The notes: generated from the letters alone by a model not told the origin. A stretch of 64,000 bases of DNA from Bacteroidales bacterium (GCA_017506175.1 JAFVNW010000018.1:1056-65055), one strand, 5' to 3'; shown: positions 5,315-17,339, numbered from the stretch's first letter. Numbers and translations: made by a program.

Positions 5315-8300
5315 TTATTTCCCAGTGAGTATCCTGCTTCTTTCGTTAAAAGTGGCTGAGATTCGCATGGCTCGTTGGGCGAGGGCCTGATCTTTGCCTT
5401 TCGCCAAAACGGCGGCGATACGGTCGAAGCTGGCCAATTCCTGACCGAATTCGTTGTACAGCTTTTGAATATTGTTGTCGAAGTCGGTACGGCGTGCGAT
5501 TTTCTGTTCCTGCGTCAGCTGGGCATCGTTGTTGATCTCGCTTATTGTACTGGAGTAGTTGTTGATCATGCTCTCCAATGAGCCCATATATTGACCGAGT
5601 TTCCTTTCCGCATTGTCGCAGAATGTGGAGGCGGTCTTTTGCATGGGCAGTGATTTCAAATCGCATTTATCGGCCAATGTGGGCAGGAATTGTTCATAGA
5701 TGAGCGTGAGGTTCTCCTCGTGGAATTTGCGGGTCTTCTCATCCGTCTTTTCGTAGAATTCCAGTTCTGCGCGGATATGGCCGACAATGATTTCACGGAC
5801 TTTCTGAGCCTTTTGCTCCAAAGCGGCATCATCCAGCAAATGTTCTGTATCGGCTTCGCGGATTGCATCGTACAAGTCGGCCAACGCGATATTTCGAACC
5901 GTGTAATAGGGATAATGGACGTTCTTGTACGGAATCAGGTTGTCGGGCATCAGCTTCTGTTGGTGGTCAAGAACGGCTTCGGCATGTTGCAGCTTGTAAA
6001 TCCGGTCTTTCGCAGGGAGGGTTGTATCACGTTGATATTCGGCAATCAGCTGTTTCGCCAATGTCTGGTGCATTCCCTGGATGGTCACGCATACGCGGAT
6101 ATTGTCCTCGCAGTTATAGACACGCGGGTCGTTCAGACCGCCCCATTGGTATTCGTAGGGAGTGTCCTTCGCATTCGGGTTCTTCACTTTGTCGGCGCGC
6201 TGATGGTTGTCGAACACATCCATCACGTGATGGTAGAGGATGTCGGTGTCGGCATTTTTCTTGCGGATCATCGGAACCAGACGATAGGCGAAGCCCTCGT
6301 CTTGCAGGTAGTCGTCCAGTCCGAAGAACTCGTCGGTGGTCTTGGCAAAGTAAATCGGGCGGTTCCAGTCGTTGGTGGCGAGAATGTCCATCATGATGAG
6401 GAAGGCGCGGGAGATTTGGGTGCCTTTGGAAATCCAGACAAGGCTATCCACGATTGCGCGGGAGTTCTCTGGGGTCACTGTGCCGTTTTTCAGCACCTTC
6501 TCCTTATCTACGGTAAGATAAAAGCGGTTGGTGATGTCTTGTGCAATGGCGCCAACGTTGTAACCGTTGGCTTGTAGGCCGGCATTGATCGACTGGGTGG
6601 AGGCGATGATTTTCTTGCTATTGAGGCTTGGGTCTTTAATCAGTTCCATGACCTGTTTGATGTCAGTGGGGGTGGAGCTGGCGTTCGCCTGTTGGAAGAT
6701 GATCATGTCGCGCACACCGTCGTGGTATTGGTCCCAAGTCATGGAGATTGGAAGCGGTTCCGACTCGTAGGCTTTCCGCTTCATCTGATCTACGTACCAG
6801 CCGGCGTTGAGCAGTGAGAGGTTGCAGACGCGCACGTCGGTGCGGTAGCCCTCCACCTCTTGGGCGTACCAGAGTGGGAAGGTGTCGTTGTCGCCCATGG
6901 TAAAGATGATGGCGTTCGGGGCGCAGGAGTCGAGGTAGGCTTTCGCAGTTGCCAGAGCGGTATAGCGGTTGGAACGGTCGTGGTCATCCCAGTTTTGGCT
7001 GGCCATCAGGCAGGGGACTAGCCCGGTGCAAATGAGGGTGATGAGGACAGGAGCCAGAATCTGCACGCCTTTGTTCTTGACTTTTTCAAACAATGAATAG
7101 ATGGCATAGACGCCGAAGCCCACCCAGATGGAGAAGGCGTAGAACGAGGCGGCGAAGGCGTAGTCCCTTTCGCGCGGCTGAAATGCGTACATATTTAAAT
7201 AGAACGAAATGGCGAGGCCGGTCATCAGGAACAGCAGGAACACGATGAAGGAGTTTTTCGTGTCGCGCATCGTGTAGAAGATGGCGCCAATCAAGCCGAG
7301 CAGCAGAGGCAGCATGTAGTATTTGTTCGTGCCTTTGCTTGCCATGGAGGCGATGCCCTCGGGTTGTTCGCCGAGGAAGGCTTTGTCAATGAACGGGATA
7401 CCAGTTATCCAGTTGCCGTCCAGTTCGCCGCCCATACCCTGGGTGTCGTTCTGACGGCCGGAGAAGTTCCACATAAAGTAGCGGAGGTACATGTAACCGA
7501 ATTGGTAGCGGTGCATGAATCGGATGTTTTCCTGATAGTTCGGGTGGCGGCGCAGCATTTTTTCGCCGGCCTTTTCATCGCCTGGATACGTCCATTCCGC
7601 GTAAGTCTTGGTGTGTTTCTCGTCGCCGTCATACATTCGAGGCATGAAACGCATATCGCCTGGGTGGTATTTCGGTTCCTCTTTGTCCGCAATCGGAATG
7701 TATTTCCCCATCTTTTCGTCTTTTACGAAAACCTTGCCCTTGTTTTCCATTTTAGTAATACGGGAGTGATAGGTCGGTCCGTACAGGAAGGGGGTCTTGC
7801 CGTATTGGTCGCGGTTGAGGTAGGCAAGGAGGGATACGGCGTCTTCGGGGTTGTTCTCGTCGATGGTCGGGTTGGCATTGGAGCGGATGACGAGGATGAA
7901 GAAGGTAGAGTAGCCGATGAGCAGGAAGAGGAGGCAGTAAGTGCCGGCCAGCAGGAGTTGTTTTCTTCTTTTATAGCCGAACCACAAGCCTGTGAAAATG
8001 AGGGCGGCGACCAGTGCGAAGAAGATGAATGTGCCGCTGTTGAACGGCAAGCCGAATGTGTTGACGAAGAACTGTTCGAAGTGGCCGGCGAGGCTGACAA
8101 TCATCGGGATGATGCCCCAGAGGACGAGGCCGACGATGACGAAGGCGCCGCCGAGTGCGAGCAGCACGCCCCATTCGGCGCCGGAGCGGAAGGTGTCGTG
8201 CTTGTAGCAGACCACCGCCAGCGGTATAGTAATGAACGCCCAGATGGCCAGCATTGCCAGAACCGGAAAGAAGAAGGCGGCGAAGAACGAGAGGATGCAT

Positions 8301-12902: not shown

Positions 12903-12949
12903 CGATTAAAATTGGAATTAGTCCTTGTGGAAAAGAAAATAACTTTTTG

Positions 12950-13213: not shown

Positions 13214-13555
13214 ATGGCATTGGAGCAACGCAAGGATATGGAGCACAGCGAGGTACATATCGGCAAATTGGTGAAGGCGGTTTTCGACGGCAGCGGCCTG
13301 ACCGTGGCGGAGCTGGCGCGGCGGCTGCACTGCGAGCGCACCAATGTCTATACCATCTTCCGCCGCCGCTCCATCGACGTGGAACTGTTGGCCCGCCTTT
13401 CCAACATACTGGGCCACAACTTCCTCGATGACGCCATGCGGTTGTATGGCCTTTCCGCTCCCTCATTAAATCTCACCCTCCGCCTTGACCATCTTTCCGC
13501 CGAGAAGCTCTCCCGCCTGTCGGCACTGCTTGCTGAATTACAGACAGAAACGTGA
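13214..13555 (+). CDS. Small helix-turn-helix protein (putative transcriptional regulator)
   Basis: LTVAELARRLHCERTNVYTIFRRRSID is a classic HTH. The ATG at 13214 immediately follows the T-tract; an alternative ATG is at 13238. The 168-aa track version would read through the structured leader. Confidence 0.55.
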   Translation: MALEQRKDMEHSEVHIGKLVKAVFDGSGLTVAELARRLHCERTNVYTIFRRRSIDVELLARLSNILGHNFLDDAMRLYGLSAPSLNLTLRLDHLSAEKLSRLSALLAELQTET

Positions 13556-13693: not shown

Positions 13694-15028
13694 ATGAAAG
13701 TCGAAAAGCGATATTTGTCACTCCCCTTGACGGCGCAGTTGGAAATCACCGATTTCTGCAACCATCGGTGCATTCATTGCTATAACCTTGACTCGGCAGT
13801 GGAAAACCGTCCGATGCGCAAGGTGAGTGACGAAACCGTGTTGACCTGTGCGCAAAAACTGATTGAAAGCCAGATTTTCAGTGTTATTGTTACGGGTGGA
13901 GAACCGCTGATAAAGAAAGAACTCACGCAAAAGGTCATCCGCCTGCTGAAAGAGAACAGGGTGCGCGTGTCGCTCAACTCCAACCTCACCCTTGCGGACG
14001 ATGACTTTATCCAATTCCTGAAAGAGCAGCAGGTCGGTGTGCTGACATCTTGTCCTTCCGGCGAGAGTTGTTCGTTTTCAAGGCTCACGGGTACAGACAA
14101 TTACCCGCTTTTTGAGACCAATATCCGAAAATTGGTTTCGGCTGGGGTACGTTTCACCGTAAACATGGTGGTGACCAAAGAGAACCTGCACGAAGTGCGG
14201 ACGACTGCCGAAAGGATGAAGGCGTTGGGTTGCAAGTCGTTTGCAGCTACCCCGATGGGGCTGAACGTGGAATATCCCCGCCTTGACCTTCTGCTCAGTG
14301 TGGAGGAGGTGCGTGGGGTGATTGCCGACCTGCTATGGATTGAAGAACATTTGAAGATGAAGGTGGACATTCTGGAGGCACTGCCCAAGTGCGTGTTCCC
14401 GGAAAGCGTTTTGAAAGGGAAGCACGCTTTTCTGAACAGGAAGTGCCAGGCTGGGCGGACGGTGATTGCCGTATCGTGTAGCGGCGATGTGCGCCCCTGC
14501 GCCCACAATCCCTACTCGTATGGAAATCTTTTGAAAGAGGAGTTACGCGACATTTGGCAGAAGATGAGCGACTGGCGTTCCCTGCAATACATTCCCGAAG
14601 AGTGCATGGACTGCGCCTGGCTCAACCGCTGCAACGGCGGCTGCCGCACCAGTGCCAAAGTATATAGCGGCGATTGGAACAGGAAAGACATGTGGTGTAC
14701 AGAAAAATTGACGCCCCCGCTGCCGGATAACACCCCAAAAAACATTGAATTGAAACCTGAAACGAGACTGCAATTTTCATCGGAAATCAGGGTGCGGGAA
14801 GAAGACGACGAGGCGTATGTGGTTTACAATGTGGAAGATGATTTCTTCTTTATGGTTAATTATGCTTATTACGACTTTATCATGGATTTGAAGAAACAAG
14901 GCAGTTTCTCTTTTGGTGAGTTATGCCAAACGAACCATTTTTCGCCCGACATCCCACAAATTCAGGATGCCATCGCATTTTTGATAAAAAAGAAAGTGCT
15001 CAAAATAATAGACAAAAACTTAAACTGA
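13694..15028 (+). CDS. Radical SAM / SPASM-domain enzyme, candidate peptide maturase with a C-terminal PqqD-like (RRE-like) extension
   Basis: CX3CX2C motif at residues 22-29 (FCNHRCIHC). Full SPASM cysteine pattern: CQAGRTVIAVSCSGDVRPC (C-X12-G-X4-C), CMDCAWLNRCNGGC (CX2CX5CX3C), then a later C in DMWC. About 100 further aa follow. The stop overlaps the ATG of a Cys-rich mini-ORF. Confidence 0.85.
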   Translation: MKVEKRYLSLPLTAQLEITDFCNHRCIHCYNLDSAVENRPMRKVSDETVLTCAQKLIESQIFSVIVTGGEPLIKKELTQKVIRLLKENRVRVSLNSNLTLADDDFIQFLKEQQVGVLTSCPSGESCSFSRLTGTDNYPLFETNIRKLVSAGVRFTVNMVVTKENLHEVRTTAERMKALGCKSFAATPMGLNVEYPRLDLLLSVEEVRGVIADLLWIEEHLKMKVDILEALPKCVFPESVLKGKHAFLNRKCQAGRTVIAVSCSGDVRPCAHNPYSYGNLLKEELRDIWQKMSDWRSLQYIPEECMDCAWLNRCNGGCRTSAKVYSGDWNRKDMWCTEKLTPPLPDNTPKNIELKPETRLQFSSEIRVREEDDEAYVVYNVEDDFFFMVNYAYYDFIMDLKKQGSFSFGELCQTNHFSPDIPQIQDAIAFLIKKKVLKIIDKNLN

Positions 15029-15204
15029 TGAATATGAATAAGAAAACAGAAAAACAGGAAATGGTTGCATACGATTTCAGCAACCTTGAACTACAAGAAA
15101 ATAGCAGAGGGAATTGCTTCGGAACCTGTGATTCTTGTGATGAAAACACAGGTGGCTGTAATTGTGACTGCGATTCTAATGACTGTGATTGTAATGAATA
15201 CTGA
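15028..15204 (+). CDS. Candidate RiPP precursor peptide A (58 aa, Cys/Asp-rich C-terminus)
   Basis: MNMNKKTEKQEMVAYDFSNLELQENSRGNCFGTCDSCDENTGGCNCDCDSNDCDCNEY. The start overlaps the rSAM stop (TGATG). It is paralogous to the next mini-ORF, with synonymous codon differences in the conserved blocks. Confidence 0.75.
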   Translation: MNMNKKTEKQEMVAYDFSNLELQENSRGNCFGTCDSCDENTGGCNCDCDSNDCDCNEY

Positions 15205-15225
15205 CATAATTAAAAAACTTATTTT

Positions 15226-15387
15226 ATGAATACAATTTTGAATTTGGAAGAATCAGTCGTTTATGACTTTAGTGATTTGAACTATCAAGTGAGCAGCACG
15301 GGGAACTGTTTCGGGTGTGATTCGTGCGATTCAGGAGACTGTGACAGTTGTGACAGTTGCGATTGCGACTGTGACAGTAATTGGTAA
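15226..15387 (+). CDS. Candidate RiPP precursor peptide B (53 aa, Cys/Asp-rich C-terminus)
   Basis: MNTILNLEESVVYDFSDLNYQVSSTGNCFGCDSCDSGDCDSCDSCDCDCDSNW. It is below the ORF-track length cut-off. It shares YDFS-L--Q--S-GNCFG-CDSCD...CDCDSN with peptide A. Confidence 0.75.
   Translation: MNTILNLEESVVYDFSDLNYQVSSTGNCFGCDSCDSGDCDSCDSCDCDCDSNW
15340..15378 (+). repeat. In-frame 9-nt tandem repeat TGTGACAGT (x2 adjacent, third copy 12 nt later) encoding Cys-Asp-Ser units
   Basis: TGTGACAGT at 15340-15348, 15349-15357 and 15370-15378, separated by TGCGATTGCGAC. Confidence 0.8.
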
Positions 15388-15405
15388 AATAAAAATACGT
15401 GAAAG

Positions 15406-16128
15406 ATGAAAAAAGAGAAATTTAAACTATACACAATCATAGCTATGGTTGTGGTCTTTATGTTGTGGCTGTTATTTTTGCTAATACCCGGTTCCCAACT
15501 TATTGCGGGCAAGGTAGTTTGTGACAGTGTTAATGCCGCCTACGTTATGGCGGGTGCTCTTTTTACAGGCCTGGCATTTGCTGCCACCTATATTTCATTG
15601 CTTATGCAAAACAAAAGACTAAAGGAACAGTTGGAGATGGACACCTTATCCAATAGTATCAGTTTGATTCTTAATTCCGATAGGTTCCGTGAAAGTCGTA
15701 AATATGTATTGTCCAAGACTTTCATTAAACATATTGAGATTTTAAAGAGAATGAAAGGGGATGCACCGATCTGTATTGAAGATTGGAAAGATTTGGACAA
15801 TGAAGGAAATGACAGCAGTAGTAGGGACAAGGATACCAATAGCTATGGGAATTATGAAAAACTGATATTCTTCTGTAGCAGAATGGAATATATGGGCATT
15901 ATTTTGAAAAATAAGGGAATTGACAACACCTTCTTGGATTATTTTGGGAACACAATTATTTTGTCATACCAAAGATTGGAGCCGTATATAAAAAATTCCC
16001 GGGAACAAATCGGCATTACCTCCTATTTCCATTATACATATCTGTATTATTTGGCAAAACAAAGAGAACCTATTTTGGAGCAAGAATGTAAGGATTTGCT
16101 CAATAAAGTAGTAGAAAGTAAGATATAA
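15406..16128 (+). CDS. Two-TM membrane protein of unknown function
   Basis: 240 aa. There are two N-terminal hydrophobic helices (IIAMVVVFMLWLLFLLI, AGALFTGLAFAATYISLLM) followed by a hydrophilic ~170-aa domain. The gene is markedly AT-rich. It is 18 nt downstream of peptide B with no intervening terminator. Confidence 0.65.
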   Translation: MKKEKFKLYTIIAMVVVFMLWLLFLLIPGSQLIAGKVVCDSVNAAYVMAGALFTGLAFAATYISLLMQNKRLKEQLEMDTLSNSISLILNSDRFRESRKYVLSKTFIKHIEILKRMKGDAPICIEDWKDLDNEGNDSSSRDKDTNSYGNYEKLIFFCSRMEYMGIILKNKGIDNTFLDYFGNTIILSYQRLEPYIKNSREQIGITSYFHYTYLYYLAKQREPILEQECKDLLNKVVESKI

Positions 16129-16171
16129 GAATTTTATAATCAACAAATTAAATAATAAATTTTATCACACA

Positions 16172-17065
16172 ATGAAAAAAGCAAAAGGAATCTTATTGGC
16201 AATTATTATGTTGTTGTTATCGCCGGCAATGAATGCACAGCGTTGTGCGGTGCTGGAGTTTAAAGCGGGAGTGGGAATCTCCCAAAACGATGTGGATGGA
16301 ATTTCCGCCATCTTTATCACCTATTTCCGTCCAAACGGCTATACTATGGTGGAAAGGACGCAGATAGACAAGGTTATTGATGAACAGGGCTTTCAGCGTT
16401 CCAAGATGACGCAGTCGCAAATGGTGCGTGTGGGGCAGATTTTAAATGTCTCGAAAATCGTGGTGGGCGACATCAATGTGGTAATGGGGCAATACAATGT
16501 GGATGTGCGGGTCATCAATGTTGAGACAGGCACAATATCTGCCACCGAAGGAGCCACGTTTGCTACATCGTCCTACCGTTCCAGCATGCAAAGTGTGGCG
16601 CAGAAATTGGCGGCCAAGATTGCCATCACGCCAGGCAGCACGGTACAGGCGCAGCAGCCAAGTGCACAGCAGTGGATAGATTTGGGGTTGCCCAGTGGTA
16701 CACTTTGGAAGTCTGCCAATGAAAAAGGGGGATTCTATACATACGAGGAAGCAGTAAGCAAATTCGGGAACAAGTTGCCAACCAGAGAACAATTGGAAGA
16801 ATTGAAAGGTATGTGTACTTGGACGTGGACAGGAAGAGGTTATAAAGTGACAGGGGGTAATGGCAACTCCATCGTTCTGCCCGCTGCGGGCTACCGCGGT
16901 TGCAATGGCAGTGTGAACTACGTGGGGTCCTACGGCACCTATTGGTCGTCCACGCCCAAAGACTCGGACTACGCTTGGTACCTCGGCATTAATTCGTCGG
17001 GAGTGGGCATGCTCGACAGCAACCGTTGCGACGGTCAATCCGTGCGCCTCGTCCAAGGTCAATGA
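16172..17065 (+). CDS. Secreted protein: CsgG/LpoB-like N-terminal domain fused to a Fibrobacter-succinogenes-major-paralogous (FISUMP)-like C-terminal domain
   Basis: Signal peptide (LLLSPAMNAQ). The N-terminal block AVLEFKAG...MVERTQIDKVIDEQGFQ...KIVVGDI...YNVDVRVINVETG resembles CsgG-like modules. The C-terminal WIDLGLPSGTLW...YWSSTP...YAWYLG...GQSVRLVQ resembles FISUMP/DUF1566-type domains. Confidence 0.6.
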   Translation: MKKAKGILLAIIMLLLSPAMNAQRCAVLEFKAGVGISQNDVDGISAIFITYFRPNGYTMVERTQIDKVIDEQGFQRSKMTQSQMVRVGQILNVSKIVVGDINVVMGQYNVDVRVINVETGTISATEGATFATSSYRSSMQSVAQKLAAKIAITPGSTVQAQQPSAQQWIDLGLPSGTLWKSANEKGGFYTYEEAVSKFGNKLPTREQLEELKGMCTWTWTGRGYKVTGGNGNSIVLPAAGYRGCNGSVNYVGSYGTYWSSTPKDSDYAWYLGINSSGVGMLDSNRCDGQSVRLVQGQ

Positions 17066-17103
17066 TTGCGCGCGCCAGAGCGCAATCGCAAGGCATTAAA
17101 ATA

Positions 17104-17151
17104 TTGTTGGGTTGTCAAGGATGTGCATTGCAGCCCAACAATGTTTTTTTT
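17104..17151 (+). terminator. Rho-independent terminator closing the rSAM-peptide-membrane-lipoprotein run
   Basis: TTGTTGGGTTG ... CAGCCCAACAA forms an 11-bp stem with one G-U pair, followed by a T8 tract (17144-17151). Confidence 0.75.
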
Positions 17152-17339
17152 ACAGATAATGATATGGCTGAATTCGTGGCTGTTTCGTCTTCCGCGGCAT
17201 CACCTGCGGTGCTCTCCGTACCTGCCGCCCGTACCGCGGGCTGACACACGGGGCTATAATGCGGCCTTCACCCTCCACGAATCATTATTCTGGCGCTTTT
17301 CGGAATCGTTGATTTCATAATTCGCAATGCAGAATGCTA

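Follow-up and report, generated by a model that had tools for sequence, protein, structure and literature searches.

The 64,000-nucleotide window analysed here, taken from Bacteroidales bacterium (GCA_017506175.1 JAFVNW010000018.1:1056-65055) and numbered from its first letter, contains a cassette in which a gene for a radical S-adenosylmethionine (SAM)/SPASM enzyme is followed by two short genes for Cys-rich peptides, designated pepA and pepB. The results suggest that the cassette represents an undescribed family of radical SAM-dependent peptides made by ribosomes and modified after translation (RiPPs) in rumen and gut Bacteroidales, with chemistry of the thioether type and with a constant enzyme-leader part joined to a polymorphic core-partner module; the probability of this reading is put at roughly 0.6. 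There is high confidence that pepA and pepB are real precursors on which the neighbouring enzyme acts. Radical SAM RiPPs are a source of new chemistry and of antibiotics, and their uncharacterised families are numerous. The Bacteroidales are reported to be underexplored for RiPPs (PMC10352776). The two peptide genes and their parts lie as follows.

15028..15204, + strand: pepA precursor, 58 amino acids (aa); open reading frame (ORF) reading, 66.9 bits with the peptide hidden Markov model (HMM)
15028-15123, + strand: pepA leader, M1-G32, ..EMVAYDFSNLELQENSRGNCFG
15124-15201, + strand: pepA core, TCDSCDENTGGCNCDCDSNDCDCNEY
15226..15387, + strand: pepB precursor, 53 aa; ORF reading, 88.2 bits with the peptide HMM
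15226-15315, + strand: pepB leader, ..ESVVYDFSDLNYQVSSTGNCFG
15316-15384, + strand: pepB core, CDSCDSGDCDSCDSCDCDCDSNW

An earlier note, made from the sequence of the window alone, had described these mini-ORFs as paralogous precursor-like peptides with a common leader, translated and under purifying selection, and every item that it listed matches the sequence on re-checking. The invariant pattern runs YDFS-L--Q--S-GNCFG, then CDSCD, then CDCDSN. Both peptides contain 8 Cys, followed by Asp in 5 of 8 cases in pepA and 7 of 8 in pepB, and after GNCFG neither has any basic or aliphatic residue; the C-terminal residue is Tyr in pepA and Trp in pepB. The codons given for the conserved blocks are exact, YDFS being TAC GAT TTC AGC in pepA and TAT GAC TTT AGT in pepB, and GNCFG being GGG AAT TGC TTC GGA and GGG AAC TGT TTC GGG, respectively. 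As for the ORF track, pepA appears in it only as the tail of a 93-aa ORF (14923..15204), and pepB is shorter than 60 aa. The ATG of pepA overlaps the TGA of the upstream radical SAM/SPASM gene (cTGATGaat), and the peptides are probably translationally coupled to the enzyme. This overlap goes beyond the earlier note, as do the rule that Asp, Asn or Glu follows Cys, the C-terminal position of the recognition domain in the enzyme and the joint swapping of the core with a DUF4760 gene, all described below.

According to the substitution patterns, both mini-ORFs are coding and under selection at the level of translation. The two peptides are identical at 30 of 52 aligned residues, and different codons are used at 18 of these 30. 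Within the ungapped leader block of 22 codons only 38 of 66 nucleotides (nt) are shared, and the 28 differences fall at codon positions 1, 2, and 3 in 5, 6, and 17 cases, respectively. When the same transitions and transversions were placed at random in this block, 6.7 residues on average stayed identical vs the 14 of 22 observed, and at least 14 identical residues were reached in 3 of 100,000 trials (P≈3e-5). Since the protein is conserved despite the nucleotide divergence, pepA and pepB are an old duplication kept at the protein level; the earlier note had likewise argued against a recent DNA duplication. The same tendency holds across homologues: when 56 leader blocks that differ in DNA sequence are compared, diversity amounts to 0.30, 0.24, and 0.53 at the first, second, and third codon position, respectively, and pN is lower than pS in 1539 of 1540 pairs. 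Nei-Gojobori pS exceeds 1 in this block, which is dominated by two-fold-degenerate codons, so that the absolute dN/dS is unreliable and the position-wise diversity and the randomisation test are preferred.

The opposite explanation, in which the mini-ORFs are not genes and merely a low-complexity TGYGAY repeat or a recent duplication happens to stay open, may be regarded as effectively refuted. The core DNA is indeed repetitive (TGT/TGC GAT/GAC), and spurious ORFs in other frames are sometimes called, as in the N-terminal extensions of P0123, P0215, and P0240. However, the third-position bias, the randomisation test and the low nucleotide identity of the two leader blocks all speak against such an origin, the best conserved part of the peptides is their non-repetitive leader, and peptide ORFs remain intact in 44 of 44 loci down to 59% enzyme identity.

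Regarding relatives, 56 loci were gathered from species-representative genomes, metagenomes, and the contigs of the closest relatives, their source samples being mostly ruminant rumen or gut (yak, water buffalo, roe deer), and every stop-to-stop segment in their six frames was scanned with the peptide HMM. Linkage was counted in the 44 loci where the enzyme is complete (59-95% identical) and followed by 150 nt or more of sequence. According to the HMM, 43 of the 44 have 1-3 intact peptide ORFs on the enzyme strand directly downstream (1 copy in 19 loci, 2 in 22, and 3 in 2), and in the remaining one, L013, a diverged copy was spotted by eye. None of the 44 loci has a frameshifted copy, and the distance from the enzyme stop to the first peptide start ranges from -4 to +55 nt. 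The peptides are thus strictly linked to a radical SAM/SPASM enzyme with the fold of a RiPP recognition element (RRE). L053 is the nearest relative with a name, its enzyme being 95% identical and its chromosomal flanks the same as in the window, and there the peptide seemed to be missing; this was an artefact of gene calling, in which an over-extended DUF4760 start (7372-8226, in the NCBI metagenome-assembled genome (MAG)) covered the peptide gene. The earlier note had named two outcomes that would refute it, loss or frameshift of the mini-ORFs in close relatives that keep the enzyme and a substitution pattern with no bias toward synonymous sites, and neither was observed.

In the databases, the enzyme has more than 420 homologues; those with a name are all entered as 'radical SAM protein' and belong to MAGs of Bacteroidales. 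Only 68 family members emerged when 1.84 billion protein cluster representatives were searched exhaustively with a profile, and 24 peptide homologues have already been called by gene callers elsewhere, none of them named. Cores orthologous to that of pepA occur in L019, L022, and P0238, and P0121, called on 4 contigs elsewhere, is 98% identical to pepB. As far as the databases searched show, the family is confined to uncultured rumen and gut Bacteroidales. Three loci with an enzyme 59-74% identical and a leader-bearing peptide (L006, L013, and L014) come from MAGs labelled Candidatus Limiplasma, Lachnospiraceae, and Christensenellaceae (Firmicutes), which suggests either binning errors or horizontal transfer; a DUF4760 gene is present in L006 and L013. 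In one set of called homologues (P0123, P0132, P0205, P0215, and P0240), off-frame readings of the TGYGAY repeat produce artefactual hydrophobic 'VIAIV' N-terminal extensions.

The family as a whole has the organisation of a RiPP precursor: one or more short genes co-oriented with the enzyme, each with a conserved leader and a variable core. The leader carries the near-invariant motif φφ[YF]DFSNL..Q....NC[FY], where φ stands for a hydrophobic residue, its consensus being E-M-V-A-[YF]-D-F-S-N-L-[ND]-L-Q-E-N-[SG]-K-[DG]-N-C-[FY]-[GS], and its Asp (54/56), Phe (54/56), Asn (55/56), and Cys (56/56) are almost or fully invariant. The 53 distinct cores, by comparison, are variable and fall into a few recurring, unrelated classes, such as CDSCD..CDSCDSCDCDCDSxW; TCDSCDENTGGCNCDCDSxDCDCNEY; CDNCNTCNHNPDGSGCNDCNNCDTC...; ..CEAEPCVCDCDCD../..CDYYEE; and ..GCDSCD[YFM]CDHGW. 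What the cores have in common is composition: Cys accounts for 27%, Asp for 26%, and Asn for 10% of residues, Lys, Arg, and His together for 2.4%, and the mean net charge is -8. The residue directly after Cys is Asp in 73%, Asn in 17%, and Glu in 6% of cases (96% in total). Aromatic residues are scarce (Trp 1.7%, Tyr 2.3%), and 20 of the 53 cores end in Trp while many end in Asp, Glu, or Asn. Among 344 Cys-Cys intervals, 126 are CxC (spacing 2) and 120 are CxxC (spacing 3), which is the dense pattern of metallothionein-like peptides; the cores also combine Cys, the putative donor, with residues of the putative acceptor set Asp/Asn/Glu/Thr.

The most divergent loci, L012 and L014, retain the leader with very different cores that have few Cys. 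In both, a second radical SAM/SPASM enzyme (L012 7608-8978, L014 1826-2923) follows the peptide in place of DUF4760. Several further members (P0216, P0223, P0229, P0235, P0236, and P0239) have the usual leader, a short Cys-Asp stretch, and a long hydrophilic C-terminal tail (up to 278 aa, in P0235), and these may be either true fusion proteins or run-on ORFs.

Neither Pfam, even at E=10, nor NCBIfam at E<=0.01 gives a match for pepA or pepB. The motif strings YDFSNL, NCFGCD, CDSCDSCD, and CDCDCDS had no occurrence in a full-text literature search, and surveys of biosynthetic gene clusters in the rumen and in Bacteroidales list generic classes only, with no description of this family.

The enzyme and its C-terminal domain occupy the following positions.

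13694..15028, + strand: radical SAM/SPASM/C-terminal RRE peptide maturase, 444 aa from the ATG at 13694 (Pfam, motifs, fold)
14765..15007, + strand: predicted C-terminal RRE (winged helix, beta3-alpha3, ~85 residues), enzyme residues ~358-438 (fold model)

The mechanical ORF of the maturase starts further upstream, at GTG 13616, and its homologues are 436-445 aa long. Pfam reports Radical_SAM with 1.6e-19 and 71 bits (cutoff 29.5) and SPASM with 2.3e-08 and 34.6 bits (cutoff 21.5). Both the radical SAM cluster motif C22x3C26x2C29 and the seven-Cys SPASM arrangement (C251-x12-G264-x4-C269 ... C304x2C307x5C313x3C317 ... C335) are invariant in 17 homologues. The generic marks of a radical SAM/SPASM RiPP enzyme are therefore all present, namely the CxxxCxxC motif, the seven-Cys SPASM and, by fold, an RRE.

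Assignment to a particular family is a different matter. The best NCBIfam scores belong to GeoRSP (99 bits), followed by AhbD (90), NirJ2 (87), DynA (84), PapB (75), and MftC (72), all far below cutoff. For the PapB family (NF047865) the enzyme reaches 74.7 bits vs a cutoff of 340, for the sactipeptide maturases AlbA and StsB 59 vs 850 and 63 vs 625, respectively, for the QhpD equivalog 48.5 vs 453, and for the anaerobic sulfatase maturase (anSME) equivalog 61 vs 349. A sactipeptide maturase would also differ in that the RRE here is C-terminal; in the QhpD case the neighbouring genes are unrelated and no amine dehydrogenase genes lie nearby; and the sulfatase-type motif C/S-x-P-x-R occurs in none of the family peptides. 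As for SCIFF, its maturase model is not among the best 25 of the enzyme's 78 weak NCBIfam matches, and its peptide model is not matched by pepA or pepB. Judged by these models, the enzyme falls in no curated family, and its chemistry is not indicated by sequence. Its relatives in the PDB are anSME, SuiB, SkfB, PqqE, and CteB by sequence, and SuiB, anSME, SkfB, and CteB at the top of the Foldseek results. The AlphaFold2 model of the whole enzyme, built on a shallow 17-sequence alignment, is poor at SPASM (predicted local distance difference test (pLDDT) <50 for residues 249-349), and neither auxiliary-cluster ligation nor an open coordination site is read from it.

The C-terminal domain modelled alone reaches pLDDT 86.7, and by fold it is predicted to be an RRE. 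Its 17 best Foldseek matches in the PDB are all RREs with probabilities of 0.75-1.00, including TbiB1 with its leader (E 1.3e-3, template modelling (TM) score 0.53-0.58), another leader-bound lasso-peptide B1, TigE, ThcOx, LynD/TruD, and PbtF, and the CteB RRE appears at ranks 32 and 41. A Pfam search with the C-terminal 98 aa gives no PqqD/RRE sequence match. In the characterised radical SAM maturases CteB, SkfB, and SuiB the RRE is N-terminal, and proteusin epimerases, reported to have theirs at the C-terminus, are without a SPASM domain (PMC8326336); for this reason the order radical SAM-SPASM-RRE is unusual, and it is of enzymological interest. The earlier note had proposed YDFS-L--Q as the recognition sequence, and this fits its place in the most conserved part of the family and the presence of an RRE fold in the enzyme; leader-RRE binding itself is what we infer.

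In the proposed mechanism, the C-terminal RRE would bind the leader motif, with YDFSNL lying as a beta-strand as in other RRE-leader complexes, and the enzyme would then modify the Cys/Asp-rich core. The likeliest chemistry is of the ranthipeptide type, in which thioether bridges formed by a radical route would run from the sulfur of Cys to the beta or gamma carbon in the side chain of Asp, Asn, or Glu; the product would be a small, densely cross-linked, strongly acidic peptide. Thioethers are proposed because the residues that follow Cys match the documented non-alpha acceptors of PapB, NxxcB, and QhpD, which are Asp, Asn, and Glu (PMC8326336). PapB forms the six Cys-Asp C-beta bridges of freyrasin, NxxcB a Cys-Asn C-beta bridge, and QhpD both Cys-Asp C-beta and Cys-Glu C-gamma bridges (PMC8326336); PapB is also able to cross-link adjacent Cys and Asp (PMC10739248). 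By this analogy, non-alpha thioethers from Cys to Asp, Asn, or Glu specifically are a tentative assignment, with chances slightly short of even. What the Cys-then-Asp/Asn/Glu rule points to is a hitherto unseen product, either a scaffold dense in thioethers or a chelator of thiol and carboxylate groups.

It is rather unlikely that the peptides are substrates for some other chemistry, such as the alpha-carbon thioethers of sactipeptides, aromatic cross-links involving NC[FY] or the C-terminal Trp/Tyr, epimerisation, or anSME-like oxidation of Cys. Such a scheme would suit the ranking of relatives, in which anSME (Cys/Ser to formylglycine) and SuiB (Lys-Trp C-C bond) precede CteB both by sequence and by fold, as well as the invariant NC[FY], the frequency of Trp-ending cores, and the NCBIfam scores, which favour no one chemistry. 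The feature that stands out most in the cores, however, is the Cys-[D/N/E] dyad (96%), whose second residue is of the kind used as acceptor in known non-alpha thioethers, and the scarcity of aromatics in the cores, the many cores ending in Asp, Glu, or Asn, and the absence of C/S-x-P-x-R from the family peptides also speak against it.

The second part of the proposal concerns what lies downstream of the leader, where the following features are needed.

15123..17170, unstranded: replaceable (polymorphic) module with the pepA core, pepB, DUF4760, and a 297-aa gene (blastn vs L053 and L049)
15406..16128, + strand: DUF4760 membrane protein, 240 aa (Pfam DUF4760 2.6e-07)
17171..17241, unstranded: ~70-nt GC-rich patch at the right edge of the replaceable module, 82-83% identity to L049-L053

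According to blastn, the window is 93-94% identical to L053 all along the left flank and on to nt 15122, a stretch that takes in the upstream helix-turn-helix (HTH) gene, the enzyme gene, and the leader of pepA. Position 15122 is codon 32 of pepA, the end of NCFG and the leader/core junction; no homology follows until a 70-nt patch at 17172-17241. In comparison with L049, homology ends at 15203, the end of pepA, and resumes at 17171. The ~70-nt patch is the only right-side sequence in common with L049-L053, L049 having an M16 peptidase and not RibD beyond it, and its role may be that of an anchor for recombination or of some small element. Among three strains whose enzymes are 92-95% identical there are thus three different core complements and DUF4760 proteins only 32-34% identical; between the window and L053 the enzyme is 95% identical and DUF4760 32%. 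Conversely, L009 and L019 have the same pepB-type core as the window, and their enzymes are 77% identical to it but their DUF4760 proteins 65-66% (65% for L009). Across 22 loci, DUF4760 identity correlates with the identity of the last core when the enzyme is controlled for (partial Mantel r=0.44, P=0.0002), and no such correlation is found for the first core in the same set.

The loci therefore display both a constant/variable junction and joint replacement of the variable end with the downstream gene, and core and DUF4760 are exchanged as a unit. The constant part consists of the putative HTH regulator, the enzyme, and the leader, and the replaceable part of the core or cores, DUF4760, and accessory secreted proteins. 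Recombination at the leader/core junction amounts to natural core swapping under one enzyme, which is a goal of RiPP engineers. Because the cores and DUF4760 are replaced together at this junction, a role as a cognate pair is suggested, in which the product might be, for example, a bacteriocin-like or recognition peptide and DUF4760 an immunity, receptor, or handling protein. That such a pair acts in strain-level antagonism, recognition, or signalling is conceivable and, on balance, doubtful. If DUF4760 were indeed the cognate partner, this would be its first function and would offer a molecular handle on strain-level competition or signalling in the rumen.

A related observation comes from L054 (3769-3948; the same peptide is found in L055), where a chimeric precursor, MSMNKKTEKQEMVAYDF|EKMQVFEFSNLN...., has a pepA-type N-terminus that passes at YDF into a leader of the pepB type. 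Such a peptide looks like the outcome of a deletion or recombination between tandem peptide genes, and it is direct evidence of recombination within leaders.

Several results weigh against parts of the proposed family mechanism. By NCBIfam scores the enzyme is no nearer to thioether formers than to other SPASM enzymes, and the RRE fold matches have modest E-values (best 1.3e-3), with no sequence model detecting the domain. The cores have a Cys every 2-3 residues, far denser than the CX3D units of the freyrasin type, and in this they resemble metal-binding peptides. In SCIFF peptides a cross-link was found on only 1 of 6 Cys (PMC8326336), and a large share of the Cys here may likewise be left free. 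The cassette encodes neither a protease nor an exporter and the peptides carry no signal sequence, which leaves cleavage and export unexplained. As for the partner protein, the co-variation of DUF4760 with the core is equally explained by physical linkage alone, and its soluble domain, which follows two N-terminal transmembrane helices (hydropathy), is predicted to be cytoplasmic (positive-inside rule), which is atypical for a bacteriocin immunity protein.

Some of these points would suit a product that is mainly metal-binding, a ribosomal analogue of metallothionein or phytochelatin in which thiols alternate with carboxylates, most Cys are free, and cross-linking by the enzyme is slight or absent or the enzyme uses the peptide otherwise. 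The almost exclusive CxC and CxxC spacing, the 27% Cys and 36% Asp plus Asn, the net charge of about -8, the near lack of hydrophobic and basic residues, and the SCIFF precedent all agree with such a peptide, and the missing exporter and protease together with a cytoplasmic DUF4760 domain fit an intracellular role. A metal buffer, however, would not be expected to have a leader stricter than its core, an RRE-bearing radical SAM enzyme at every locus, or cores replaced between near-identical strains, and no Pfam metallothionein or other family is matched even at E=10; it is accordingly considered improbable. The thioether-type family with exchangeable cores is the preferred reading. Its most far-reaching form would be a new RiPP class in which the leader-guided enzyme turns runs of Cys-Asp/Asn/Glu dyads into tiny thioether rings, vicinal or near-vicinal, that follow one another like rungs of a ladder, or else the product is a ribosomal, phytochelatin-like thiol/carboxylate chelator, with the core exchanged together with its cognate DUF4760 for strain-level recognition or antagonism in rumen Bacteroidales. 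This form is speculative and seems more likely to be wrong than right.

In comparison with known systems, the sequence models place the cassette outside PapB, SCIFF, sactisynthases, QhpD, and anSME, and yet it would seem to work like a system of the ranthipeptide/SCIFF type. The freyrasin system PapA/PapB of Paenibacillus polymyxa likewise combines a radical SAM/SPASM enzyme with an RRE, a leader peptide, and repeats of Cys donors and Asp acceptors, and PapB also accepts Glu. In contrast to it, the RRE here is C-terminal and not N-terminal, the leader is unrelated, the host is a Gram-negative Bacteroidales, the acceptor stands directly after Cys, and a polymorphic core is linked to DUF4760. 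SCIFF systems of Clostridia (CteA/CteB, Tte1186a/Tte1186) also consist of one short Cys-rich peptide and one radical SAM/SPASM maturase with no dedicated protease or exporter, their chemistry is a non-alpha thioether, and CteB is a detectable structural relative of the enzyme. However, SCIFF peptides are highly conserved and single-copy, whereas the cores here are hypervariable and present in 1-3 copies; the SCIFF acceptor is Thr, and here it would be Asp, Asn, or Glu; and the gene order here is enzyme and then peptide. NxxcA/NxxcB of Streptococcus and QhpC/QhpD of quinohemoprotein amine dehydrogenase offer precedent for the acceptors Asn, Asp, and Glu, although NxxcA has a single bridge and a different peptide architecture.

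Proteusin radical SAM epimerases are RiPP enzymes in which a C-terminal RRE is reported as well, but they lack SPASM and auxiliary clusters, have long nitrile-hydratase-like leaders, and show no detected sequence relationship. Polymorphic toxin/immunity and bacteriocin/immunity cassettes resemble the present one in their sharp constant/variable break and in that the variable end changes along with the gene after it between near-identical strains; the likeness is one of gene organisation, and the variable unit here is a RiPP core and not a toxin domain. The family thus appears to be an undescribed one among radical SAM RiPPs, which differs from the others in RRE position, core design, and polymorphic architecture.

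The remaining elements of the cassette are listed below.

13214..13555, + strand: helix-turn-helix (XRE/HigA-like) protein, 113 aa (weak Pfam HTH_31/HTH_26, PHROG transcriptional regulator)
16172..17065, + strand: secreted/lipoprotein-like protein, 297 aa (signal-like N-terminus, weak Pfam domains)
17098..17155, + strand: intrinsic terminator, long hairpin and U8 (-23.9 kcal/mol, z = -4.64)

The mechanical ORF of the HTH gene starts at TTG 13049, and in L049 the gene caller gives the protein a length of 113 aa. In many loci the enzyme is preceded by such a small HTH protein; it is 93-99% identical in L049-L053 and 42-54% in several others, where it lies directly upstream of the enzyme, and it is a putative regulator of the cassette within the constant part. 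A DUF4760 homologue directly follows the peptides in most loci. It has no PDB sequence, PHROG, or PADLOC match, and the only paper found to mention it does so in passing. The 297-aa protein weakly resembles CsgG/FlgO in its N-terminal domain and FISUMP/Lcl_C in its C-terminal one, all matches lying below cutoff except CsgG (26.8 bits); its gene is present in some loci only, L049, L053, and L054 having other genes instead. CsgG-family proteins are outer-membrane peptide channels, and a part of the 297-aa protein in export is conceivable given this weak match.

The hairpin at 17098..17155, which none of 200 shuffles folds as well as, is likely the end of the transcription unit, and no convincing terminator was found inside the cassette. 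A scan for sigma-70 promoters gave no more sites than shuffled sequence, the sigma-70 consensus being uninformative for Bacteroidota, and neither the cassette nor the 70-nt patch gave a match when scanned for Rfam families and tRNAs. A reading of the cassette as a defence system was dropped: PADLOC reported only a generic viperin-like radical SAM similarity for the enzyme, and DUF4760, the HTH protein, and the 297-aa protein had no match. The flanking housekeeping genes (acetate-CoA ligase family, RibD, and glycogen debranching enzyme) lie outside the cassette. GC content is 36-37% for the peptides and DUF4760 (35.7% for DUF4760), 49% for the enzyme, and 53% for the flanks.

Two further differences in the surroundings were noted. 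Between the acetate-CoA ligase and HTH genes, L053 (4000-5252) and L049 (1211-2470) carry a ~1.25-kb insertion with genes for a toxin of the AbiEii-like kind (205-254 aa) and, upstream of it, a small partner protein (92-129 aa), and the window, which lacks it, joins these flanks within ~30 nt (12919-12948). Elsewhere in the window, the region 38500-42000 is low in GC (36-39% vs ~50%) and may be another acquired island; it contains a DUF5640 protein and four ORFs, 201-305 aa long, for which Pfam gives no match.

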